Source: Parcubacteria group bacterium (GTDB lineage: Bacteria > Patescibacteriota > Minisyncoccia > Phycocordibacterales > DATDWN01). Taken from it: 52,949 nucleotides of DNA. Under the pieces are notes generated by a model. That model saw only the letters and a list, made by a program, of their open reading frames with translations. It made no database searches and was not told where the DNA came from. The DNA is taken from NCBI GenBank assembly GCA_039740895.1, contig JBCLGS010000003.1, forward strand, positions 1 through 52,949. Reading direction: 5' to 3'. How positions within the stretch are numbered: the stretch's first letter is position 1; the number at the start of each line of letters is the position of its first letter. The translations under genes were made by a program, and so were the position numbers. Shown one piece after another: positions 3,520-29,903 of this stretch.

Positions 3520-3670
3520 CCCGACTTTAAAAGAAGAATTTCGTTGAAGTCATGTCTTTTTTGGAGGCTTCGCAAGCCGGGTAGGCGAGACTTGAGGAAA
3601 ATTTCAACAGAAATTTATCCGTACTCCAAAAAAGATATGACGAAAAAGAAATTCTTCTTTTCAAGTCGGG
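3520..3670. repeat. long imperfect palindrome, family 3 (core TTTTGGAGGCTTCGCAAG.CGGGTAG.CGAGACTTGAGGAA ... ATCCGTACTCCAAAA)
   Basis: Outer arms CCCGACTTTAAAAGAAGAATTTC / GAAATTCTTCTTTTCAAGTCGGG. The core matches 36423-36616. The 3' arm overlaps the first 3 nt of the tmRNA. Confidence 0.8.
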
Positions 3671-4062
3671 GGTGACAGGTTTTGACATAAAGTGTGCGTT
3701 AATTCGCGCAATGCGGAGTTCCGAAAACTCCTTAATAATTTCGGAAACCATACGTGCAAAGAATTCTCTTTCACAGGTAAAATCTCCATACTTCGGTATG
3801 TCAGACTTTGCTTTCGCTCGCGTTTAAGTTTTACTTAAACCCCTGCGGGGTGTGCCATTTTGATATCTGATACGAATGGTTGCATCTTATAACTTCAGGT
3901 CCGGATTATTGTCTGCCTCAGCAGTAATCTCAAAAAATGAGACTCGCCTTTGTTGTGTTTTGTTTATTTTTTAGTAACAAAGTCTAAACATCAAAATATG
4001 CTATGCATTGTAGACCCGTTTTAATCTGCTTTATGGATGCGACTTCGATGTCGCCATCTCCA
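3668..4062 (+). ncRNA. ssrA: tmRNA (ssrA)
   Basis: The 5' end GGGGGTGACAGGTTTTGAC pairs with the 3' strand CATCTCC, giving an acceptor stem with a G3.U70 pair. T arm is GCGAC-TTCGAT-GTCGC, with discriminator A and no encoded CCA. It sits directly downstream of smpB. A tentative tag ORF starts at GCA AAG AAT ... and ends ...GAC TTT GCT TTC GCT CGC GTT TAA (AKNSLSQVKSPYFGMSDFAFARV). Confidence 0.85.
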
Positions 4063-4186
4063 CTCGACTCACCTTTCCCGAAGAAAGGTTCGCTCGTGGC
4101 AAGCCACCTAACACCGCTCTTAATTGAGTGGTGTTTTGCGTATTAAGGTGAGTCGAGTGCCCTGAGCGTAGTCGAAGGGCTGAATT

Positions 4187-5048: not shown

Positions 5049-6455
5049 CTAAAACTCTTTTTCCAAAATTTTTGGATTTGTTTTGTAGATTTTCAATATC
5101 AGTTCCCCAAACAACGAATTTGTCCAGCCGAACCAAGGTCTGGTGTAATCTTTTGGTTTATCTACATTTACACTTTCGTGCATAAAATAAGTTCCAGCAT
5201 GTGTTTCTTTCAAGATTTTCAGGCAGGAAATTATTTCCTCTTCATTTTCTGTGGTGAGTGCTTGCATAATAGTAGCCATAGGCCAAAAATGATCAACTGT
5301 GCCTGTGTGAGGACTTGTTAGACCGGAAAATTTTCCCTTTGCGTAAAATGGGTTCCATTCACTAAATATAAACTTCTTTGTTGCTATATAAATGGGATCG
5401 TTTATTGAACAGTAACCTAGATATGGCAAACTCAAAAGGCTTGGAACATTTGGGTCATCCATCATACAAACCGAGCCAAAGCCATCAACTTCATAGGCAT
5501 ATATATCGCCAAATTCTTTGTGATTTATAATTCCGTTTTCATTTATTCCCTTATCAATCTGACTGGCGAGTTCAACCGCCAAATCTTTTAATTCCAATTC
5601 TCCAATTTTCTGAAGTATTTTGGAAACTTCCCGAAGACTGACTGAAGCCATGGCATTTGAAGGTATAGAATAAGGAAAAACGGCTTCATCGTCGGACGGA
5701 CGGAAAACACTTCTGACCAAACCACATCTTTTACCGGGATAACCAAAACCTCGCATCCTGACGGCGGGGTGGGGATTTTTGTCTGGGCCATAAAATTGAA
5801 ATAAGTTTTTGAGATTTTCTTTTGAAAGTGTTTTTTGTTCTTTTTGCAAAACTTCTATCAATTTTCTAAACGCCAAGAGCCATATTTTATCAAACGGAGT
5901 CATATCCGAAGTTTGTCCGAAATATCCAGTGGATAATCGCATAAATGCACATAAACTATCCAATTCATATTTTCTCTCCCAAACACCTTTTTGCCAAGCA
6001 TTTCCTTTTTGCCAGCCAGGATTTAATTTTTGTTTCTCATCTACATTAAAAGCATTGGCGTATGGGTCAATTAAAATATTTTTTGACTGTCTGTGAATTA
6101 AACCTATAAACAAATTTTTAATTTTCTTGTCTTGATTTATAAATTGCAAATAAGGCCAAACTTGGTTTGTAGAATCCCGAAGCCACATCGCTGGAATATC
6201 ACCAGTAGAAATATATGTATCTGGTCTGCCATTTTTCTCCGAATAGTGTGTCATTGTGTCAAGCGTGTTTGGTAAACATTGAGAAAACATCCGTTTAATA
6301 TCCTTGTCCTTAATATTTTCTGAAATTTTAACAATTTCCCGATCAATAAAATCACTAACAAATAAACGGTCTTTGACTTTTGGCCGAGATTTGAGGTGCA
6401 TAAATTTATTATCTTTTTTCTTGTTCTTTTTTATCATATAGACATTATACAACAA
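5049..6455 (-). CDS. glycoside hydrolase family 125 (DUF1237, exo-alpha-1,6-mannosidase-like)
   Basis: 468 aa. The motif [19 protein letters not shown] and the length fit GH125. The start could be an internal Met (MIKKNKK). Confidence 0.7.
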
Positions 6456-6540
6456 TATTCAAGTCATGGAACATATCAAACTGTTGCTTTTTTCTGCAAA
6501 TAGTGCTATATTTTTTCTGTTAATTATAAATAAACGCATG

Positions 6541-6660
6541 GAAATTTCAGATTTGGATGAAATCCGAGGCGGACGATGAAAAATATGAGGAGATGTATCG
6601 AGTATACATTGACGAAAATTTTTCAAGTCCAACGAAGGAGTTCGCCAAATATGGAATTTC
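6541..6660. repeat. long imperfect palindrome, family 2
   Basis: Arms GAAATTTCAGATTTGG / CCAAATATGGAATTTC. It shares the blocks GGATGAAATCCGAG.CGGA and TCCAACGAAGGAGTTCGCCAAAT with 10035-10156. Confidence 0.8.
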
Positions 6661-6669
6661 TCACATAAA

Positions 6670-7179
6670 TTGTCTACATATATAAGAATCAATAATCAAA
6701 TACAGGCACCAGAACTTCGTGTAATCATGGAGGATGGAGACAACTTGGGAGTAATTTCTTTCAAGGAGGCATTGGATAAAGCCCGTGAACTTGGACTTGA
6801 TTTAATTGAAATTTCACCGAAAGCCGAGCCACCAGTTGCAAAAATCATGGATTATGGTAAGTTTCAGTATGCTGAAAACAAAAAGCAAAAGGTAGCAAAA
6901 GCTAAAACTCATATAGTAGAGGTTAAGAATATTCAGGTAAAGGTGGGCACAGGAGATAATGACCTCCAGCTCAAGGCAAAAAAGGCTTCGGAATGGCTAA
7001 AAGAAGGAAATCGCATCAAAATTGATCTCTTTCTACCAGGCAGAACGAAATATATGGATTTGAACTTTTTGAAAGAGAGAATGGACCGAGTTTTGAAGCT
7101 CATCACAGAGGAATTCAAAGTAGCAGACCCTGCGAAGAAAAGTCTAAAGGGACTATCAATTGTAATAGAGAAAGCATAA
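6670..7179 (+). CDS. infC: translation initiation factor IF-3
   Basis: 169 aa containing IRINNQIQAPELRVI and the conserved C-domain. The ORF opens with TTG and has no clear SD. Non-AUG starts are the rule for infC. It is followed by rpmI-rplT. Confidence 0.9.
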   Translation: MSTYIRINNQIQAPELRVIMEDGDNLGVISFKEALDKARELGLDLIEISPKAEPPVAKIMDYGKFQYAENKKQKVAKAKTHIVEVKNIQVKVGTGDNDLQLKAKKASEWLKEGNRIKIDLFLPGRTKYMDLNFLKERMDRVLKLITEEFKVADPAKKSLKGLSIVIEKA

Positions 7180-7303
7180 AAAACTTCCAAATCTAGCACA
7201 TTTCTTCGGTACTCGTTTTGTTTGTTAGAAGCAGTATACTTATACAGCTTCGTCACAAACAAAACTCCGCCCATCGAAATGTATCTAGATTATGAAAGTT
7301 TTT
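7180..7303. repeat. long imperfect palindrome, family 1 (apical GTATACTTATAC)
   Basis: Begins right at the infC stop codon and is about 90% identical to 23663-23784. Arms AAAAACTTCCAAATCTAG... / ...CTAGATTATGAAAGTTTTT. Confidence 0.85.
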
Positions 7304-7317
7304 AATAAATAATTAAT

Positions 7318-7512
7318 ATGTCAACAAAAACAAACAAATCATTCACAAAGCGTCTAAAAGTCAGTAAAAATGGCAAGATTAGAGCGCGCAAGACTGGCCA
7401 AGGACATTTCAATGCAAAGGAATCACGCCGAAGCCAATTGGCAAAGAAGCGAGGAGTCTCTTTTCCAATGAGCAACAAAGACAAAGCTTTTTATATAGGT
7501 AACAAGTTCTAA
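7318..7512 (+). CDS. rpmI: 50S ribosomal protein L35
   Basis: 64 aa and basic, with KRLKVSKNGKIRARKTGQGH. It lies in the infC-rpmI-rplT arrangement. Confidence 0.9.
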   Translation: MSTKTNKSFTKRLKVSKNGKIRARKTGQGHFNAKESRRSQLAKKRGVSFPMSNKDKAFYIGNKF

Positions 7513-7539
7513 TTATTAAACTGAAAATCAAAAACTACC

Positions 7540-7935
7540 ATGACAAGAGTTAAGAAAGGAGTAAATGCTCTAAAAACAAGAAGAAATGTCCTAGCAAAGG
7601 TAAAAGGTTACCGATTTGGACGATCGACAAAAGAGAGGCAGGCAACTGAAGCTATTTTCCATGCAGGTGCTTATGCTTTTGCTCACAGAAAAGACAAGAA
7701 GGGTGATGCACGAAGACTTTGGAATGTTAAAATCTCATACGCTTTGAAAGCTATGGGCGGAGAAAATAAATTGTCGTATAGCAAATTCATTGGTGCAATG
7801 AAGAAAAAAGATATGTTAATTGACCGAAAAATCCTAGCTACTTTCGTTGAAGAAAATCCAGAAACATTTAAGAAAGTTGTAGATATGGCTTTCTCAGCTC
7901 CCGCACCAGCAAAAGCACCCCTAAAAAATTCCTAA
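7540..7935 (+). CDS. rplT: 50S ribosomal protein L20
   Basis: 131 aa containing MTRVKKGVNALKTRRNVLAKVKGYRFGRS and RRLWNVKI. Confidence 0.92.
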   Translation: MTRVKKGVNALKTRRNVLAKVKGYRFGRSTKERQATEAIFHAGAYAFAHRKDKKGDARRLWNVKISYALKAMGGENKLSYSKFIGAMKKKDMLIDRKILATFVEENPETFKKVVDMAFSAPAPAKAPLKNS

Positions 7936-10394: not shown

Positions 10395-10422
10395 GAAAAG
10401 GCCCCGCACGAATGCGGGGCCG
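10395..10422 (-). terminator. rho-independent terminator of islet A
   Basis: Stem GGCCCCGCA / TGCGGGGCC (10401-10422) with loop CGAA, followed on the minus strand by TTTT. Confidence 0.8.
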
Positions 10423-10441
10423 AAGACTAAGGTCAAAGGAT

Positions 10442-11068
10442 CTAAGATATCTGAGTGACCAAGCCAAGAGCTACTCGAAGGCCAGCAAACCACCAGATGC
10501 CATCCCAGACGCCGTCGTCACGGCCGACGCGCACAAAGCTCACGCCGAACCAGCGACTGAAGGCAATGTAACACCATTTGTCGGTATCCTTCCAGTGAGT
10601 GCAGTTGGGGTGACTATCAGCAAAAGCCGGGTCTGCCTCGTTAACCGCTGATAGTGAATACGGATCAGCAGGCTTGAGTCCGCGGAGGTCGTACTCATTT
10701 TCCAAATCGGCGTCGCTGACATACTTACCAACCTTGAAGAAAATGACCTCCACCTCGTTACCCTCGCCTTTTGGCATGGTGGCGACGACAAAATCTTGAA
10801 TATGCTTTTTTCGGCCGGTGGCATTGATTGCCTCTTCCGGCGTGCGGTTGCGATTGACAGTGACTCTACGAGTGATCATGTTGCTGACCTCCTCTACGAA
10901 TTTTTGTACGACCGCAACCAAATCTGAAACCAAAACATCACCCCGATGTTCCAGCACCTGCTGGGTTGGTTCGCTCATGAGTCCGGACTTTCTCAGTCCA
11001 GCTCCGAGCAGTTCTTGGATTTTGCCGATCTGGCCGGCAGTTATTATCGATGGGGTCATGTTTTCCAT
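10442..11068 (-). CDS. hypothetical protein, GC-rich islet A (208 aa from MENMTPS)
   Basis: ATG at 11068 is preceded by GGAG 8 nt upstream. Hand counts give 40/60 G+C at 10501-10560 and 30/60 at 10741-10800, against 20/60 at 12481-12540. The C-terminal half (..GLKPADPYSLSAVNEADPAFADSHPN..WKD..WWFAG) resembles a widespread uncharacterised family that I cannot name with certainty. Confidence 0.7.
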   Translation of the reverse strand: MENMTPSIITAGQIGKIQELLGAGLRKSGLMSEPTQQVLEHRGDVLVSDLVAVVQKFVEEVSNMITRRVTVNRNRTPEEAINATGRKKHIQDFVVATMPKGEGNEVEVIFFKVGKYVSDADLENEYDLRGLKPADPYSLSAVNEADPAFADSHPNCTHWKDTDKWCYIAFSRWFGVSFVRVGRDDGVWDGIWWFAGLRVALGLVTQIS

Positions 11069-11106
11069 GGCGTCATCTCCTTTTTTCAATCCCATTCTTG
11101 CGAATG

Positions 11107-11169
11107 ACCTGCTCTAAAAGTCAGGATTTATCTAATGATAGGGATATCATACTTTAATTTTTCTGTCAA
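11107..11169 (-). promoter_or_regulatory. islet A promoter plus shortened leader motif
   Basis: Minus strand reads TTGACA (11169-11164), 17 nt, TATCCC with an upstream TG, then ATCCCTAT..ATAAATCCTGAC-TTTTAGA-GCAGGT (11107-11130). Confidence 0.5.
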
Positions 11170-11278
11170 GTAGATGTATCCGTCCATAACATATGAGACT
11201 CCTCGGCTGTTAATTTACTGACAAATAAAAATAGACCTTGCGGACAGGCACTAAATGGTGTGTAAATGGAAAATTTTA

Positions 11279-13123: not shown

Positions 13124-13158
13124 AAGTAGTGAGAGAAGGTAAATTATAAAATAATAAT

Positions 13159-13180
13159 GCCCACCAATTTCTTGGTGGGC
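13159..13180. terminator. bidirectional terminator hairpin
   Basis: Stem GCCCACCAA / TTGGTGGGC with loop TTTC, between convergent 12104-13123 (+) and 13212-13424 (-). Both flanks are T-rich. Confidence 0.7.
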
Positions 13181-13211
13181 ATTTGTTGAGCGGGATTTGG
13201 AATTGTTGCTT

Positions 13212-13424
13212 CTACTTTTCGATCTTCCTTGGGATACTTTCCCAAGCGGCTTGTGCCGACTTGTGGAAGGTAGTTGCAAATCCGATAGTGCCGAGCAAAG
13301 AGCCGACAGCCATCAATATCCATATCTTCTCGTTGGGAACATTCTGGAATGCGCGGAACGCAATCCACCCATAAGTCAGAGCACAGAAAAACATCAATGT
13401 ACGAAACTTGATTAATCCAAACAT
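13212..13424 (-). CDS. small 2-TM membrane protein (GC-rich islet B, cassette B2)
   Basis: 70 aa with two hydrophobic helices. It has an AAGGA SD, is preceded by the leader motif, and is followed by a terminator. Confidence 0.6.
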   Translation of the reverse strand: MFGLIKFRTLMFFCALTYGWIAFRAFQNVPNEKIWILMAVGSLLGTIGFATTFHKSAQAAWESIPRKIEK

Positions 13425-13441
13425 ATTTTATCCTTTTCCAT

Positions 13442-13486
13442 ACCTGCTATTTATAGTCAGGATTTACTGGATTTTAATTCAAAGAA
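13442..13486 (-). promoter_or_regulatory. leader motif copy upstream of cassette B2
   Basis: Minus strand reads TTCTTTGAATTAAAATCCAGTAAATCCTGAC-TATAAATA-GCAGGT. It matches the islet D leader over 30 nt with one extra A. Confidence 0.7.
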
Positions 13487-13603
13487 CTTCCTGAATCTTG
13501 GCTAACAAACTTTCGTTTGTGAACCCAGTACAGGAGTCGAGCTTTCCCAAAGGATCACTCGACTCAAACCTTTTTACAGCTGGTAAGGCTGACACTGAAA
13601 GTG

Positions 13604-14128
13604 TTAGAAGTGGAAGAAACGGAAACCTTCGCGGATGGTTTGACGACTATACAGTTCAGTCATGGCTTCGACGAATTCTCGAGCTTCCACAAACTGAATG
13701 CCATCAATCCTACCGTATCGTTTCTCCCATACGTGAGCATGCCGCATGAAGAGGGTATTGATACCCTGTGCTTTGCAAGTGGCTTCGACAGCTCCCTTAA
13801 ACATTGCACGCTTCTCTTCCTCCCATGCTTTGTATGCATCTTTCTCAGTCTCTGAATTCGGACCTTTCAGTCCGTGGAGCTCTGAAGAACAGCAGGCGCA
13901 AACGACCGGGTAATAACCGCTTGTTGCGTCGTTTGGCAGATTAAATTGCATCTGCGTCCGTGTCCCAGTCATTTCCGAGACCCACATAACGAAAGCGAAT
14001 GCTGACATCGCCTTGTTGCGAAGAAGTGTAATCGGCTCACCATCCACAGGAACGTCAATAAGTTCGACATCCTCTACATGTACGGCGGTCTTTATCACTT
14101 CATGAATGCTCAAGCGCATGGTTTCCAT
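13604..14128 (-). CDS. hypothetical cytosolic protein (GC-rich islet B, cassette B1)
   Basis: 174 aa from METMRLS, with GAGGAG SD 6 nt upstream. An in-frame upstream ATG at 14158 would add MAAGVDEEID. No recognisable domain. Confidence 0.65.
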   Translation of the reverse strand: METMRLSIHEVIKTAVHVEDVELIDVPVDGEPITLLRNKAMSAFAFVMWVSEMTGTRTQMQFNLPNDATSGYYPVVCACCSSELHGLKGPNSETEKDAYKAWEEEKRAMFKGAVEATCKAQGINTLFMRHAHVWEKRYGRIDGIQFVEAREFVEAMTELYSRQTIREGFRFFHF

Positions 14129-14304
14129 ATCAATCTCCTCATCCACACCTGCCGCCATTGTTTCCAATGCTGGTCAGGATTTACTGGATTTTACAAAGAA
14201 CATAGGGATTACTCCCACCAAAGCATTCTTTCGCAAAAATGTTTTGGTAGAAGTCCGAATTAACCTTCTGCAAAAAGTATACACTAGTTCACATATTTTG
14301 TCAA
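14129..14304 (-). promoter_or_regulatory. islet B1 promoter and about 150-nt leader containing the conserved module
   Basis: Minus strand reads TTGACA (14304-14299), 17 nt, TATACT (14281-14276). The leader core at 14129-14219 matches islet D at 52 of 56 positions. Confidence 0.7.
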
Positions 14305-14376: not shown

Positions 14377-15117
14377 ATGACAAAAAACAATAAACACATC
14401 ATTGAACAGCTCCATGACATCGGCCTCAAGCAGAACGAGGCTGAAATCTATTTATTCCTCCTAGAAAACGGTCTCTCTACTCCGCCACAAATTGCCAAGG
14501 CGACAAGTATCGCCAGAACAAACTGCTACAACATCCTGAAATCGCTTCTTGAGAAAGATGTGGTCAATGAACAAATGAAAGGCAAGAAAAAAATCTACAC
14601 TGCACGAGACCCGAAATCACTTAAGCTAAACTTGGAACGGAAAATGGAGTCTATCAATCGTCTCTTGCCAGATCTTGAGGCTTTGCATAAAACCCAGAAA
14701 AACAAGCCGTTATTTCGATTCTACGATGGTTTTGACGAATTACGATTTATATATGAACAATCACTTGAAGCTCAAGAAATATATTCTATTGCTTCAATTG
14801 AAGGTTTACACCGGCTGGATAGCCAGTTCTTCGAGGAATATAACAAAAAATGCACTAGGAAAAACATACGGTTCCACGATATTTTGACTGCAGGGTCGCG
14901 AAAATCGGCAGAAATCATAGAAAATATCCAAGACAAGAATCATACGATTCAATTTTTGCCACCAGAATATTCTGAAAATATCACGGAGATGCTTATGTGG
15001 GATGATAATATCGCCTTAATATCTCTCGAGACTCCGATATTCGGCACAATTATCACAAGCAAGCCACTGGCAAACACCCTGAGAACCATTTTCAAATTCA
15101 TTTCTTCGAAACTTTAA
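14377..15117 (+). CDS. TrmB-family transcriptional regulator
   Basis: 246 aa. The N-terminal winged HTH (LKQNEAEIYLFLLENGLSTPPQIAKATSIARTNCYNILKSLLEKDVV) is typical of TrmB-like regulators. It is divergent from islet B. Confidence 0.65.
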   Translation: MTKNNKHIIEQLHDIGLKQNEAEIYLFLLENGLSTPPQIAKATSIARTNCYNILKSLLEKDVVNEQMKGKKKIYTARDPKSLKLNLERKMESINRLLPDLEALHKTQKNKPLFRFYDGFDELRFIYEQSLEAQEIYSIASIEGLHRLDSQFFEEYNKKCTRKNIRFHDILTAGSRKSAEIIENIQDKNHTIQFLPPEYSENITEMLMWDDNIALISLETPIFGTIITSKPLANTLRTIFKFISSKL

Positions 15118-23852: not shown

Positions 23853-24176
23853 TTATTTGAAAAGCAGTTTCAATTTTTCCATTATCATTTTCAAATAAGG
23901 TAATTCAAGAACACCGAACTTGCCCAAAATAATTTTCTTTTGAAGTGTTGCTAATTTACTGACCCTAATAACAGAATTTATTTTCAACCCATTGATTTGT
24001 GACATTTTAATTGAAATATCAAACTGCCCCAACTTTTTCTCTTTTTTAGAAGATATGAAAGCAACTATACAATCCTCTCCTTTGTCTTGACTATATAAAA
24101 CAATAGCTGGTCTGACTTTCTGTCCAGACATATCTGTAAATGGAAACGGTATGAGTACAATATCTCCCTTAAACAT
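23853..24176 (-). CDS. type II toxin, PemK/MazF family endoribonuclease
   Basis: 107 aa. MFKGDIVLIPFPFTDMSGQKVRPAIVL is the PemK/MazF N-terminal signature. It overlaps the upstream antitoxin ORF by 8 nt. Confidence 0.8.
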   Translation of the reverse strand: MFKGDIVLIPFPFTDMSGQKVRPAIVLYSQDKGEDCIVAFISSKKEKKLGQFDISIKMSQINGLKINSVIRVSKLATLQKKIILGKFGVLELPYLKMIMEKLKLLFK

Positions 24177-24420
24177 ATTTTTCCTTTAAATCAGCCAGTG
24201 AGTAAATCTCTTTTTCTTTAGCAAGAAAATCAAAGCTTTTTGAGTAACTATTTATATTAGTTATATCGTTTAATTCTGAGTTGTAGGCACTTGGAAACTG
24301 AATAAGCAGAGCATCAATAGAATTTCGCCGACCAATACCAAATACCTGGCCAGAGTACTTGACTTGGTTTATTATATTACATATATCTTTTCTGGCTTTA
24401 GTTGTTGTGATTATTTTCAT
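24169..24420 (-). CDS. cognate antitoxin (Phd/YefM-like)
   Basis: 83 aa from MKIITTTKARKDICNIINQV. Assigned by position and size; family assignment is weak. Confidence 0.5.
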   Translation of the reverse strand: MKIITTTKARKDICNIINQVKYSGQVFGIGRRNSIDALLIQFPSAYNSELNDITNINSYSKSFDFLAKEKEIYSLADLKEKYV

Positions 24421-24546
24421 AATGTACATATTGTACAAAATTGAAATAATAAATGCAAGTCAACTAAATCTGAGAGTTTTTTAATTTTCTGTGCGTTTAT
24501 GTTTTAAGGGGTGGTGCAGTTCAGATTAGAATTCAAGTCAGAGTAC

Positions 24547-24670
24547 TTGACAAATATCAAACTTTAGTTTAGTATTGCGGTAGGAGAAATCCTAATATTC
24601 TTTGAATTAAATCCAGTAAATCCTGACCAACATTGGAAATAATGCTGGCAGGTGTGGATGAGGAGAATAA
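24547..24670 (+). promoter_or_regulatory. islet D promoter and conserved leader module
   Basis: TTGACA (24547-24552), 17 nt, TAGTAT (24570-24575). The leader carries three AAATCC hexamers (24587, 24609, 24618). Stem-loop 24622-24652 is CCTG-A-CCA-A-CATTG-GAAA-TAATG-C-TGG-CAGG. SD is GAGGAG. Confidence 0.7.
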
Positions 24671-25111
24671 ATGAAGAGAGTATTGTTCGTTGCGGTGATT
24701 GCCATGACCTTGGTGGGTTGTGGTGTTGTGGATAAGGTCTCGACAGACCACAATAATCCGCCGTGCAACCTGACGTCTCTGAAGATCAAGGAAATCAAGA
24801 TCATTGGGGATAAGGAGGGTTTTGTCGCTCGTGCAATTAAGTCCGAACTCTACAAGTTCGGCGCACGGGTCGACAAGGACGGGGTGGAGATGTTGGGAGA
24901 TGTCCACTGGAATGTCAATGGTACAATCCCGATGTCTCTGTCACTGGAGGCACCATCGCTTTCTTTCGCGTCGACTGCGAGAATTAGCGGGGCCTACATA
25001 GGAATGGACACGGTAAAGGGGTCGGAGGAACTCGGGGAGGAAGTCGGAAAGGACTTCTGTGCCTGCTTCGCAGCACTCATGCTGCCGCCTTCTCTGCCGA
25101 TAAAAAAATAA
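24671..25111 (+). CDS. lipoprotein (GC-rich islet D)
   Basis: 146 aa. Signal peptide MKRVLFVAVIAMTLVGC ends in a lipobox (LVGC). No recognisable mature domain. Confidence 0.7.
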   Translation: MKRVLFVAVIAMTLVGCGVVDKVSTDHNNPPCNLTSLKIKEIKIIGDKEGFVARAIKSELYKFGARVDKDGVEMLGDVHWNVNGTIPMSLSLEAPSLSFASTARISGAYIGMDTVKGSEELGEEVGKDFCACFAALMLPPSLPIKK

Positions 25112-25190
25112 ACAAGGGTTGAGACCCCTCAAAAAATCTCAATGGGTAAGACTCCGTATTCAGTAAAATGAAAACGGACATCAAACCCTT

Positions 25191-25275: not shown

Positions 25276-25513
25276 GAACTTCCCATCATTTTAGATACAT
25301 TAAAAAAATTCCTAGCATCACTCCGTGAAGGTTAACTACGAGAGGCAATCAAAGTAATTGCCGAAAGAGATTAAATAACTCAGGCTCCACCTCGGCTGTT
25401 TTGCCTACTAGCAAAACACGCATCCGACCAGTTCGACCCCCTCGCAAGAGTGTGCAGACACTCTTGCTCCATCCCGCACAGAAACCAAAAATAGCCCGAT
25501 GGCTCTTTCTTTG

Positions 25514-25584
25514 TGCGGGATAGGGGAATCGAACTCCTACTAATAGATTGGAAATCTATTGTTCTACCATTAAACTAATCCCGC
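25514..25584 (-). tRNA. tRNA-Gly (anticodon UCC)
   Basis: Minus strand reads GCGGGAT-TA-GTTT-AATGGTA-GAAC-A-ATAGA-TTTCCAA-TCTAT-TAGT-AGGAG-TTCGATT-CCCCT-ATCCCGC-A. 71 nt, no encoded CCA. Confidence 0.9.
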
Positions 25585-28171: not shown

Positions 28172-28409
28172 TTTTTAAATAACAAAAAGTTGTTGAGGGA
28201 ATGAAAATTCTTTTCTTTGTCGGGGTGCCGGGAAATTCTTCCTCAACTTTTTCCTCCTTACAGGAGCAGTACACCTTTCGCATCTGAATACAGATGTTCA
28301 AGGTCTTGCGAAGTGATACCATCACTTCTCACCCGCTCCGTTTTTCGATTCTCGATGTAAAGTCATAACATGACTTTACTGCACACCGAAAAAAACTTTG
28401 AGTTTTTTG

Positions 28410-28480
28410 TCGGGGTGCCGGGAATCGAACCCGGGCCGCCTGATCCCAAATCAGGTATACTACCGCTATACTACACCCCG
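28410..28480 (-). tRNA. tRNA-Pro (anticodon UGG)
   Basis: Minus strand reads CGGGGTG...CCTGA-TTTGGGA-TCAGG...CCGGG-TTCGATT-CCCGG-CACCCCG-A. 71 nt with G37, no encoded CCA. Confidence 0.9.
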
Positions 28481-29512: not shown

Positions 29513-29583
29513 GCGGGCATGGTTTAGTGGTAGAACACGTCCTTGCCAAGGACGAGACGGGGTTTCGATTACCCCTACCCGCA
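29513..29583 (+). tRNA. tRNA-Gly (anticodon GCC)
   Basis: GCGGGCA...CGTCC-TTGCCAA-GGACG...GGGGT-TTCGATT-ACCCC-TACCCGC-A. 71 nt. Confidence 0.9.
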
Positions 29584-29611
29584 CAGAATTAATAAAGTTT
29601 CTTAATTCAAT

Positions 29612-29683
29612 GCGCCCGTAGCTCAACGGATAGAGTACCGGTCTTCGGAACCGTGGATGTGGGTTCAATTCCTGCCGGGCGCA
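29612..29683 (+). tRNA. tRNA-Arg (anticodon UCG)
   Basis: GCGCCCG-TA-GCTC...CCGGT-CTTCGGA-ACCGT...TTCAATT...CGGGCGC-A. 72 nt. Confidence 0.85.
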
Positions 29684-29903
29684 CATGATAGAAAAATATG
29701 AACTGCTTCATATTTTTCGATACATGTGCGAGCCACAGTCATGTTTTTTCACCAGAAAAAACAGACGAGGCGGGGTCGCGGAAATTTCCGAGTGATGACG
29801 AGGAAATTATCTGTGACCACAAGCCTGCTTCATATTTTTCGATACAAGTGCGGGGACGGAGCGATGTTTTGTCTTTAGACAAAACACGTGAGTCCAAAAT
29901 GCC

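Follow-up and report, generated by a model that had tools for sequence, protein, structure and literature searches.

In the adenine (add) riboswitch of Vibrio vulnificus, a translational ON switch, the helix P1 competes with an alternative that sequesters the Shine-Dalgarno (SD) sequence, and stabilisation of P1 frees the SD. The leader module analysed here, which is present four times in the window (the whole stretch of 52,949 nucleotides, from a Parcubacteria group bacterium, that was analysed), is similar in that its outer helix P1 is oriented, its 5' strand resembling an anti-SD and its 3' strand an SD, and has an alternative about 2 kcal/mol away; it is different in that it has no sequence or fold relation to the add riboswitch, no three-way junction and no function common to its genes, and its aptamer role is putative. 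With the preQ1-I riboswitches and other mini-aptamers next to the SD it shares a very small core, close apposition to the ribosome-binding site and conserved unpaired adenines, but unlike preQ1-I it has no Rfam match and no evident H-type pseudoknot, and its SD is outside the conserved fold. The coat-protein hairpins of phages MS2 and PP7 and the thrS operator are also hairpins near a ribosome-binding site in which a bulged A is essential, and phage T4 RegA is an example of a single kind of operator shared by numerous unrelated genes. The apical loop of our motif, on the other hand, is not conserved, and recognition would be at the internal loop and lower helix. An MS2/PP7-type operator was rejected for this reason and because its fold contains neither the SD nor the AUG, even though the bulged A is invariant, and no candidate binding protein that co-occurs with the motif was found among 150 neighbouring proteins.

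Two kinds of mobile units also bear comparison. Like the attC sites of integrons, the motif is found between unrelated ORFs of arrays as a hairpin whose structure is conserved, whose terminal part varies and in which some bases are extrahelical; unlike them it is tied to the downstream start codon, and its cassettes often have their own promoter and terminator. The attC core sites (RYYYAAC ... GTTRRRY) are lacking, as the P1 ends are sequence-free and the 3' flank is a purine-rich SD, and the context does not suggest attC either, since no integrase is among the 25 families listed of the 105 found (150 neighbouring proteins) and none is recurrent. Phage morons are self-contained promoter-ORF-terminator units of deviant composition between resident genes and are not defined by a shared structured leader. 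The units described here answer to the first part of this description, but they do share a structured leader, and they are present between housekeeping genes in Patescibacteria-type chromosomes as well as in viral contigs.

The Patescibacteria (candidate phyla radiation) make up a large, mostly uncultured share of bacterial diversity. A recent perspective on the group mentions riboswitches solely as possible engineered tools and not as native elements; with this motif, Patescibacteria and uncultured phages would have a regulatory RNA that is native to them and defined in sequence. It would be a new small aptamer if it binds a ligand and would define a post-transcriptional regulon if it binds a protein, and in either case it would be a compact part usable for expression control where genetic tools are only now emerging. 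In addition, accessory orphan genes of foreign composition can be traced in these genomes by the leader architecture that they share.

Four copies of the leader in the window

An earlier note on this DNA had placed four copies of the module upstream of four ORFs, and all four (A to D in table 1) are found in place. The sequence TAAATCCTGAC occurs exactly four times in the window, at 24617(+), 14183(-), 13466(-) and 11130(-); when up to one mismatch is allowed there are 8 matches (1.36 expected), a number that 0 shuffles reach. The pattern AATCCTGA-N5-35-CAGG finds the identical four sites with 0.20 expected, and the statement that every copy keeps TAAATCCTGAC followed by GCAGGT holds (4 observed, 0.2 expected). 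A covariance model trained solely on copies from outside the window gives copies A, B and C scores of 35-42 bits (E 1e-7 to 1e-9) and finds a fifth copy nowhere in the window. Against the covariance model the core of copy C scores 41.8 bits (E 8e-9) and copy D scores 14.1 bits (E 0.39), the latter over model positions 9-32 only.

By reading, copies A and B are identical at 52 of 56 positions from ATCCAG to GAGGAGA, as had been counted, and one of the four differences is indeed a change from G.U to G-C beneath the GAAA loop. Leader A does carry three AAATCC hexamers (starts 24587, 24609 and 24618, 22 and 9 nt apart). The alignment and its column counts bear out the proposed CCUG(A)C/GCAGG stem and the variability of the part that it encloses; to these our analysis adds the outer helix P1 (AUCCA/UGGAU), an extra A-U pair with a bulged U, and the distribution beyond this genome, all absent from the earlier description.

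The predicted transcript of copy A would start at about 24582, and in a fold 2.7 kcal/mol above the minimum its AUUCUUUGAAU tract pairs with GAGGAGAAUA. The promoter scan of the window found no promoter-like site for copy C itself, so copy C is probably co-transcribed with B. In copy D, the GGAUU behind the extra hairpin may pair with AUCCC (11145-11141) as a tentative distal P1; locus L249 (1398-1425) has the same layout of a core plus an extra hairpin.

The four ORFs are mutually unrelated, with no protein or coding-DNA similarity at E<=10 and no Pfam family in common. The conserved unit is therefore the non-coding module, as had been proposed, and the loci are not segments of one recent duplication with coding similarity. 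There is a negligible chance, in our estimation, that the module has no function and that the four copies are relics of a single recent duplication or a chance or compositional repeat. The close identity of A and B would fit such an origin, but the coding regions are unrelated, four copies are present where 0.2 would be by chance, and about 100 more copies elsewhere show covariation and compensated variants; the covariation and the distribution (below) already contradict it.

Table 1. Positions of the elements of leader copies A to D and of the downstream ORFs in the window
Feature	Position	Strand	Details
A, module	24577-24670	+	
A, sigma-70-like promoter	24547..24575	+	TTGACA-17-TAGTAT; 10/12, consensus matches only
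A, P0 hairpin	24582..24593	+	AGGA-GAAA-UCCU, GNRA loop; Module 1 remnant; P0 covaries in Patescibacteria-type leaders
A, pyrimidine tract	24597..24607	+	AUUCUUUGAAU; conserved GUUCUUU element, SD-complementary
A, P1 5' strand	24611..24615	+	AUCCA (covariance model)
A, internal loop	24616..24621	+	Asymmetric, G-UAA; A24620 (pairs U24653), bulged U24621
A, P2	24622..24652	+	CCUG 24622-25, bulged A24626, CC 24627-28
A, P2 upper/3' part		+	18-nt extension with GAAA loop 24629-46, GG 24647-48, CAGG 24649-52
A, P1 3' side	24653..24659	+	U24653 (pairs A24620), G24654 loop, P1 3' strand UGGAU 24655-59
A, SD and start	24660..24673	+	GAGGAG 24660-65, spacer, ATG at 24671
ORF A	24671..25111	+	146 aa, lipoprotein-like (MKRVLFVAVIAMTLVGCG...), 52% GC, GC3 0.63
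Terminator-like hairpin behind ORF A	25113-25131	+	
B, module	14129-14219	-	
B, sigma-70-like promoter	14276..14304	-	TTGACA-17-TATACT; 11/12 consensus matches
B, complete Module 1	14194..14253	-	H1 5' strand 14253-14243, H2 hairpin 14241-14224 (GCGA loop), H1 3' strand 14222-14212
B, Module 1, rest		-	Alternative P0 hairpin GGGA-GUAA-UCCC 14216-14205; GUUCUUUG 14201-14194
B, core	14141..14189	-	P1 5' AUCCA 14189-85, G-UAAAU 14184-79, CCUG 14178-75, bulged A14174, CC 14173-72
B, core, 3' part		-	Extension 14171-54, GG 14153-52, CAGG 14151-48, U14147, G14146, P1 3' UGGAU 14145-41
B, SD and start	14126..14140	-	GAGGAG 14140-35, ATG 14128-26
ORF B	13604..14128	-	174 aa, 48% GC, without assigned family
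C, module	13425-13490	-	
C, pyrimidine tract	13476..13487	-	GUUCUUUGAAUU
C, core	13436..13472	-	P1 5' AUCCA 13472-68, G-UAAAU 13467-62, CCUG 13461-58, bulged A13457, CU 13456-55
C, core, 3' part		-	6-nt loop, AG 13448-47, CAGG 13446-43, U13442, A13441, P1 3' UGGAA 13440-36
C, SD and start	within 13212..13435	-	AAGGA 13435-31, ATG 13424
ORF C	13212-13424	-	70-aa membrane protein
Terminator-like hairpin behind ORF C	13183-13156	-	
D, module	11069-11146	-	
D, core only	11107..11131	-	A-UAAAU-CCUG-A-CU..AG-CAGG-U; adjacent P1 absent
D, extra hairpin	11088..11106	-	GNRA-capped, CAUUC-GCAA-GAAUG 11106-11093, directly 3' of core, then GGAUU
D, SD and start	within 10442..11082	-	AAGGAG 11082-77, ATG 11068
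ORF D	within 10442..11082	-	208 aa, 52% GC, ATG 11068
Terminator-like hairpin behind ORF D	10421-10400	-	

Consensus fold, natural variants and distribution

A combination of pattern scans, in collections of viruses, genomes and metagenomes, with the subsequent covariance model recovered at least about 86 distinct canonical copies and at least about 22 of a compensated variant (the matches listed from the genome-collection scan and the relaxed viral scan were mostly chance). These define a core of about 35-40 nt that consists of two helices, an outer P1 that is variable in sequence and, above an asymmetric purine/UAA internal loop, the near-invariant CCUG/CAGG, topped by a hairpin that is free in length and sequence. 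From P1 upwards the consensus reads P1 (3–6 bp), R-UAA, an A–U or G–C pair, a bulged Y, CCUG/CAGG, a bulged A, CY/RG and the variable hairpin, after which come P1', 2–8 nt, the SD, about 7 nt and AUG. In P1, 208 double-sided changed cells were counted (shuffles, 70.7); none of 500 shuffles comes up to the observed values, and slid controls collapse. RNAalifold, run on an ungapped MAFFT alignment, independently predicts the identical fold. Nearly all of the copies were gathered by patterns with an exact core, and part of the seeming invariance of CCUG/CAGG is therefore built in; the compensated P2 variants CCUC/GAGG and CUUG/CAAG occur in diverged tandem copies. An aptamer-like conserved core with covarying helices in a 5' UTR, by which riboswitches are recognised, is thus present, and it is found on contigs that span 25-67% GC.

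The natural variants are numerous enough to serve as a mutagenesis series, and they define the structure almost to the nucleotide level. Variants were compared in the viral collection by scans of comparable specificity, with the presence of P1, SD and start codon as the variant test. The change from A-U to G-C (UAAGU...GGC) is present at 40 loci, and 22 of its 32 distinct matches pass, whereas the mismatched A.C (9 loci) passes in 0 of 6 and the wobble G.U (9 loci) in 1 of 8; of these, only the compensated pair is enriched. When C, G or U stands in for the bulged A, 0 of 39 cases pass against 8 of 27 for the canonical form, and at U14 the variant scans show tolerance of C only.

Three explanations of the module had been offered in the earlier note, and among them a cis-regulatory RNA is favoured by the P1 covariation, the enrichment of the compensated A-U to G-C change and the fixed distance to the SD and start codon. 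An operator array for one regulator, and likewise a promoter or dimeric DNA operator, does not suit the core, whose halves, GACY and RGCAGG, are not at a fixed spacing but from 3 to 19 nt apart, and P1 covariation is not expected of a duplex DNA site. The end of a mobilising element finds no support in recombinase neighbours, yet the cassettes are modular.

The hosts of the motif are Patescibacteria MAGs and uncultured viral contigs. Leaders and cassettes of the window are shared with Patescibacteria-labelled MAGs, and the core occurs also in single, non-arrayed phage genes; BLAST searches with six common core variants found no match in cultured phages and plasmids. When the window and 20 motif loci were compared with Rfam 15 (4227 covariance models), only tRNA and tmRNA reached the gathering threshold, and the matches in permissive E-value scans of leader A and the L013 array are all far below gathering scores. 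Literature searches, by full text for the core sequence and by topic, brought up no relevant work among the papers listed. The earlier impression that no described motif matches is thereby upheld, and the motif is a structured leader RNA family new to Rfam 15. The sole dataset found to hold the window is a glacier DNA metagenome, and related loci turned up in no RNA run.

Downstream genes and their cassettes

The four ORFs have a GC content of 46-52% and GC3 values of 0.50-0.63, in a window of 37% GC whose other genes have GC3 values of mostly 0.27-0.40. The suggested association of the motif with compositionally foreign ORFs holds in cellular genomes but not in viral contigs. Four motif-led, foreign-looking orphan genes are present here in 15 kb, and elsewhere there are up to five in succession; the cassettes of the window sit between housekeeping genes at several sites. 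The leader and ORF of copy C are 86.5% identical to metagenome contig L282, a similarity that stops at the cassette borders. One and the same ORF can be accompanied by different leader versions and lie in different contexts. Four homologues of ORF A were found, and those in L415, L416 and L419 have no upstream core-model match (E<=1), so the core is dispensable in orthologous cassettes. In the tandem arrays L156, L182 and L013 the intergenic modules are near-identical and the ORFs unrelated.

Across the copies, 77 downstream proteins form 63 unrelated clusters and are mostly orphans. Pfam searches of 78 downstream proteins found twelve families, each matching a single member; the single-member matches to Pfam and PHROGs include SSB, pentapeptide repeats, DUF3846 and a sigma-70 region 4 protein, as well as an RNAP alpha-CTD/GerE protein, Cas_VVA1548 and DUF7249. 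The 63 clusters show, by Pfam and PHROGs, no common function that would hint at a ligand, whereas metabolite riboswitches usually have genes that do. No neighbour family recurs beyond 2 among the 150 neighbouring proteins (105 Pfam families).

Relation to the ribosome-binding site and possible roles

The ORF starts about 9-17 nt past the end of the model in most of about 85 usable copies, and the element keeps a constant spacing to the SD and start codon that follow it, and not to the upstream stop. Sigma-70-like sites lie shortly upstream in the window, and many other copies have promoter-like hexamers (consensus matches) at a distance that ranges from a few to about 40 nt upstream, which would often place P1 close to the 5' end of the transcript. 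An intrinsic terminator or attenuator was rejected, as the terminator scan lists none at motif sites and the hairpin is followed by R-P1'-SD rather than directly by a U tract.

P1 is markedly asymmetric. C-G outnumbers G-C by 41 to 1 at its closing pair, and the two orientations of the pair after that stand at 48 vs 13; its 5' strand is pyrimidine-rich and anti-SD-like and its 3' strand SD-like, a bias of the latter that could merely reflect a purine-rich ribosome-binding-site context. Default folding gives a folded core and a free SD in most leaders (median P(SD unpaired) 0.62). The median cost of freeing the 3' strand of P1 is 2.1 kcal/mol; among 83 leaders there are then 36 in which the 5' strand pairs with the SD, and the fraction of paired SD guanines goes from 0.18 to 0.47. 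In Patescibacteria leaders the conserved GUUCUUU and UCCC are predicted to pair with the SD, and in Module 1 the helices H1 and P0, which share nucleotides and are mutually exclusive, both covary. Over all copies, anti-SD complementarity upstream shows only a weak enrichment (mean z -0.34) and characterises the Patescibacteria-type leaders rather than every copy.

What the analysis shows is the structure, its conservation pattern, its set distance from the SD and AUG and how near in energy the two states are. Our best reading is a cis-acting 5'-UTR RNA element that would bind a trans-acting factor and gate translation, its transcription, binding and regulatory direction being what we infer; we judge the chances that this is correct to be about even. 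Against it count the 63 unrelated clusters of downstream genes, the default fold with its free SD, the weak overall enrichment of upstream anti-SD complementarity, the orthologous cassettes that do without the core, and the alternative origins given above for the bias of the P1 3' strand and for the invariance of CCUG/CAGG. The conserved loop, bulges and helix would form the pocket for the factor, a small molecule or a protein, whose gene need not be nearby. Stabilisation of the folded core by the factor would make P1 hold the anti-SD strand, with its 3' strand as an SD-like decoy, and leave the real SD free and translation on; in an unstabilised core the 5' strand of P1 would pair with the SD and block initiation. 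In Patescibacteria-type leaders, where the core would be combined with a second, bistable leader module, the SD would likewise be blocked by GUUCUUU further upstream and by UCCC from Module 1.

A purely constitutive role would also fit the default fold with its free SD. The fold would then sense nothing, and as a 5'-proximal structure it would block 5'-end-dependent decay (of the RNase J/RNase Y type) and/or keep the SD accessible in an open linker, and mobile genes would carry it along to boost their expression. The 5' stem-loop stabilisers of ompA and aprE, and Stab-SD, are precedents, and the nearby promoter-like hexamers, the unrelated downstream genes and the RNase J-like and RNase Y-like genes of the window would all fit. 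We nevertheless think this role rather unlikely, in that a stabilising hairpin needs no specific sequence, whereas the UAA loop, the bulged A and CCUG/CAGG are kept over the whole range of GC content and the bulged A is never replaced in a functional context (0 of 39); moreover, the variable promoter distance means that P1 is not always 5'-terminal, and the oriented P1 and bistable Module 1 point to switching.

The clear modularity of the cassettes could also reflect an element that acts as DNA, a single-stranded hairpin that by analogy with attC might be a recombination or junction site for the insertion or shuffling of ORF cassettes. Its resemblance to attC (P1 conserved more in structure than in sequence, extrahelical bases, terminal hairpin of variable length), the several sites between housekeeping genes within 15 kb, the near-identical modules of the three arrays and the ORF with differing leaders and contexts would agree with this, but the distance that stays fixed is the one to the following SD and start codon, the upstream promoter-like hexamers would place the motif within the mRNA, no integrase or HUH/Y1 transposase is recurrent among the 150 neighbouring proteins, AAC/GTT-type core sites are absent from the helix ends in the alignment read by eye, and the non-arrayed phage genes have the core as well. 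Such a DNA role seems improbable to us. We give very little credence to a small self-cleaving or endoribonuclease-directed processing site, at which cleavage would separate the cistrons of an array and leave a defined, base-paired 5' end; in size and conservation (invariant unpaired A's, a variable peripheral hairpin) the motif is like small ribozymes, and it is found in phage and mobile contexts and between tandem-array cistrons, but it matches no Rfam ribozyme family and has neither the pseudoknot nor the multi-helix junction typical of the known small self-cleaving classes. A number of other elements were dropped as unfitting on inspection by eye, namely the kink-turn, sarcin-ricin/loop E, the 11-nt tetraloop receptor, the permuted T-loop/tRNA T-arm, the 16S 790-loop complement, CsrA sites, N4-type hairpin promoters, ssDNA Frpo promoters, ops/LoaP sites and CRISPR repeats.

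A wider form of the factor-binding, translation-gating element, which we put forward tentatively and with a good deal less than even confidence, is that the core may be a new riboswitch-class aptamer or a widely conserved site for an RNA-binding factor, a portable sensor that would time the translation of accessory genes to a cell-state signal in phages and in Patescibacteria cassettes. In the latter it would be wired in series with the bistable H1/P0 and GUUCUUU anti-SD switch, and both modules would be the standard junction of an unrecognised system of GC-rich cassettes between housekeeping genes. Accessory genes of this sort are possibly concerned with host interaction or anti-defence.

Four copies of a leader motif and their relatives elsewhere

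Our search of the window finds the exact 11-mer four times, just as the earlier note had described, and the pattern AATCCTGA-N5-35-CAGG matches these known sites and no others (4 matches versus 0.20 expected). Read directly, the four sites (copies A to D, table) have a common layout of TAAATCCTGAC, a variable insert, GCAGGT, a purine-rich Shine-Dalgarno (SD) sequence and ATG. Copies A and B are identical at 52 of 56 positions, with one of the differences being a change of G.U to G-C beneath the GAAA loop, and leader A has three AAATCC hexamers whose starts are 22 and 9 nt apart; both of these claims were reproduced. The downstream ORFs A to D (a 146-aa lipoprotein-like protein, a 174-aa protein, a 70-aa membrane protein and a 208-aa protein, respectively) gave no Pfam family in a Pfam search, and the previously claimed absence of similarity among them holds in both protein and DNA comparisons. 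Their GC content is 46–52% and their GC3 0.50–0.63; the window has 37% GC, and GC3 of its remaining genes is mostly 0.27–0.40. They occupy three separate insertions amid low-GC housekeeping genes, with sigma-70-like promoters (by consensus match) just 5' of copies A and B, terminator-like hairpins after C and D, and another such hairpin on the opposite strand shortly downstream of A.

The chromosomal setting is otherwise ordinary (tmRNA, IF3/L20, an RNase J-like beta-CASP protein, NDK, PNPase, tRNAs and a MazF pair), and the window sequence itself was found in only one glacier DNA metagenome. The tmRNA is of the standard one-piece type, and the four tRNA genes, which end in ..CAC or ..GAC, all lack an encoded 3' CCA. 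The MazF/PemK-like toxin gene and the ORF that overlaps it lie immediately upstream of cassette A and are both very AT-rich (30% GC); the 89-aa ORF is probably the antitoxin.

Coordinates of the features discussed (L-numbers are viral, genome or metagenome loci outside the window)
Feature	Location	Remarks
Motif copies A, B, C, D	window 24577-24670 (+), 14129-14219 (-), 13425-13490 (-), 11069-11146 (-)	
Exact 11-mer	window 24617 (+), 14183 (-), 13466 (-), 11130 (-)	window search
GC-rich insertions	window 10400-11170, 13156-14304, 24547-25131	three, with four ORFs, within 15 kb
Core variant without adjacent P1	window 11088-11131 (-); L249 1398-1450 (+)	
Second leader module (Module 1)	window 14194-14253 (-); L156 5495-7815; L415 3574-3633; L416 3280-3349, 3760-3818; L153 245-301, 694-750	
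Tandem arrays	L156 ~5400-7820 (-); L182 5779-6772 (-); L013 2500-3126 (-)	L156: MAG JAUYLN010000019
TrmB-family winged-helix regulator gene	window 14377-15117 (+); L415 844-1605; L416 146-895	
MazF/PemK-like toxin and upstream ORF	window 23853-24438 (-)	107 aa; overlapping ORF 89 aa
tRNA genes	window 25513-25584, 28409-28480, 29513-29584, 29612-29684	
tmRNA	window 3668-4065	
tRNA gene row	L240 3654-3979	
TAAATCCTGACTTGCAATCA.TCT.CAAGCAGGT hairpin	L114 1129-1162, L126 6980-7013, L160 4151-4184	three Alkalimonas species
Identical pattern matches	L168 852-907, 7353-7408	two; 10-bp inner stem; Thiomicrospira MAG

Beyond the window most copies were gathered with exact-core patterns. Such a scan of viral contigs gave 94 loci, mostly chance or coding matches, of which about 12 show a closed hairpin with an SD and ATG behind it, in front of small ORFs; contig GC spans 26–51%. 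Among the matches listed for the genome collection, the credible ones are nearly all in Saccharibacteria, Doudnabacteria, Nomurabacteria, Parcubacteria or Patescibacteria MAGs (three tandem copies in some), and one is in a Clostridia MAG whose leader is the same as that in a viral contig. With GGAG downstream as an additional requirement, 89 loci were obtained from metagenomes, and about 65 of these are credible. The earlier note had suggested phages and plasmids as places to look; cultured ones, as searched here, gave no match, but uncultured viral contigs did. The Rfam 15 scan that it also proposed, run on the window and 20 loci, found no family at the motif, and literature text searches returned nothing relevant to it. 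The element is real and well defined, a predicted structured leader RNA without a match in Rfam 15 and a new family within a known kind (the cis-acting 5'-UTR elements), and it is tied to orphan, cassette-like genes of Patescibacteria-type genomes and uncultured phages.

Two sets of pattern matches stand apart. The Alkalimonas hairpin is conserved, with a 535-aa lipoprotein-like gene about 38 nt downstream; it has neither P1 (see below) nor an SD next to it, and may be unrelated, fitting the pattern by coincidence. The Thiomicrospira pair, 6.5 kb apart on one contig with no SD or ORF downstream, look less like the leader motif than like a repeat element, of which they would be the ends or copies. 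Four consecutive tRNA genes accompany a motif copy on a metagenome contig of low GC (29%); many phages likewise carry tRNA genes in a row.

Downstream genes and cassettes

In most of about 85 usable copies an SD-bearing ORF starts roughly 9–17 nt past the end of the model described below, and many copies have readable promoter-like hexamers between a few and about 40 nt 5' of them. The 77 downstream proteins fall into 63 clusters, and Pfam and PHROGs identify only single members (SSB, pentapeptide repeats, DUF3846, Cas_VVA1548, DUF7249, a sigma-70 region 4 protein and an RNAP alpha-CTD/GerE protein). No family recurs among 150 neighbouring proteins, those of MAG loci being encoded by housekeeping genes. 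The idea that the motif precedes compositionally foreign ORFs holds for cellular loci, where the GC of motif-linked ORFs exceeds that of their flanks by 10 points on average (12 of 13), but not for viral contigs, where there is no such excess.

ORF C and its leader are 86.5% identical to a metagenome contig, with the similarity stopping at the cassette borders. ORF A has only four detectable homologues, and for three of them the gene neighbourhood is not that of ORF A. At L415 and L416 the homologue is preceded by the upstream leader module with the core absent, and at L419 by a more diverged module, again without core; at L416, L418 and L419 the core instead lies ahead of an adjacent 344-aa ORF. 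These differing contexts and leader parts show that the cassettes and the parts of their leaders are modular. Tandem arrays contain three to five cassettes with near-identical intergenic leader modules and unrelated ORFs; L156 has five consecutive Module 1 leaders, three of them with the core. A TrmB-family regulator gene adjoins the window cassette cluster, divergent from cassette B, and is also present in two unrelated contigs with ORF A homologues; its product could regulate the cassettes, or the gene could simply be conserved beside a hot spot for insertions near rpsO/pnp.

Structure of the core and of the upstream module

Inspection of the flanks of the conserved core revealed a helix, P1, whose sequence differs in almost every copy (CUCCC/GGGAG, UGCC/GGCA, AGUUU/AAACU, UGUGUC/GACAUA, CCCGGC/GCCGGG and others). 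A covariance model seeded with 18 equal-length copies, those of the window left out, scores A, B and C at 35–42 bits, matches D as core only, and finds no further site in the window; over 99 sources it gives 109 matches (72 at >=30 bits), including diverged tandem copies missed by exact patterns. In the alignment of these matches, P1 has 208 cells changed on both sides versus 70.7 in shuffles, 0 of 500 of which reach the observed value, and slid controls fall to 29–79. This alignment was fitted to the model, but RNAalifold gives the same answer on the ungapped seed alignment, where it predicts the identical fold. In the column counts, UAAAU is preceded by a purine and GCAGGU is followed mostly by A or G, which usually gives the loop a closing purine-purine pair; above the bulged A there is C-G or U-A pairing, and the apical 3–19 nt show no conservation. 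The consensus reads P1 – R-UAA – [A-U or G-C] – bulged Y – CCUG/CAGG – bulged A – CY/RG – variable hairpin. The constancy of CCUG/CAGG (P2) is imposed by the search patterns, and the few copies collected without that bias include the compensated forms CCUC/GAGG and CUUG/CAAG.

Natural variants serve as a mutagenesis series. Diverged copies suggested pairing between the fourth loop base and the one that follows CAGG (A with U in 81 copies, G with C in 4, G with U in 1). We examined this pairing with viral scans of comparable specificity in which each distinct hit was scored for P1, SD and start codon. The G-C form UAAGU..GGC (40 loci) passed in 22 of 32 distinct hits and the canonical form in 8 of 27; the A.C form UAAAU..GGC (9 loci) passed in 0 of 6, the G.U form UAAGU..GGU (9 loci) in 1 of 8, and replacement of the bulged A by C, G or U (49 loci) in 0 of 39. 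At the final loop base U to C is the only change tolerated; CAAAC and AAAAU loops were seen too, among the matches listed in a relaxed scan. The core variant without adjacent P1 has an extra GNRA-capped hairpin directly 3' of GCAGGU (CAUUC-GCAA-GAAUG or UAUCC-GCAA-GGAUA) and may be a three-way-junction form. As GNRA loops are also frequent in P0 (below) and at the P2 tip, docking of a tetraloop onto the CC/GG helix is conceivable.

A second module, Module 1, lies upstream of the core in copy B and many MAG copies and occurs elsewhere without the core. Its first element is a long helix, H1 (CUYCNNNNAAA / UUUNNNNGRGAG), around a small hairpin; the NAA-UYCC that follows has the alternative of pairing with this GRGA, which gives a GNRA-capped hairpin, P0, after which comes a conserved GUUCUUU tract able to pair with the SD. 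H1 is 92% paired with seven pairs changed on both sides, and P0 is 100% paired with two. H1 and P0 are mutually exclusive and both covary, so Module 1 carries the signature of a bistable RNA. In the minimum-energy fold of the core-less L415 leader, H1 is formed and UCCC and UUCU are paired to the SD, AGGAGGGA; in near-optimal folds of A and B the UUCUUU tract pairs with GAGGAG at the base of P1. Leader A begins past the H1 5' strand and so retains only P0 and the tract, leader C retains the tract alone, and leader D has neither.

Possible mode of action

P1 is strongly oriented (its closing pair is C-G in 41 cases and G-C in one), which makes its 5' strand anti-SD-like and its 3' strand SD-like. 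Unconstrained, most leaders fold into the motif and leave the SD free. Forcing the P1 3' strand open raises the best fold by a median of 2.1 kcal/mol; in 36 of 83 leaders this fold has the SD paired to the P1 5' strand, and the paired fraction of SD guanines is 0.47, up from 0.18. Together these features favour a plausible competition in which a factor would stabilise the folded core (ON) against a state with the SD sequestered (OFF); Patescibacteria leaders would add the GUUCUUU/UCCC anti-SD and a toggle between H1 and P0. The main rival is a constitutive role, with the folded element acting as a stabiliser or enhancer, and lesser ones are an attC-like role at the DNA level and a processing site or ribozyme. 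A fixed-spacing promoter or operator, the latter among the options of the earlier note, is excluded by the variable length of the insert.

For the favoured ON/OFF competition, that no protein co-occurs with the motif and that it spans 25–67% GC speaks for a small molecule, or some ubiquitous component of the cell, as the factor, and the unrelatedness of the downstream genes argues against a metabolite of a specific pathway.
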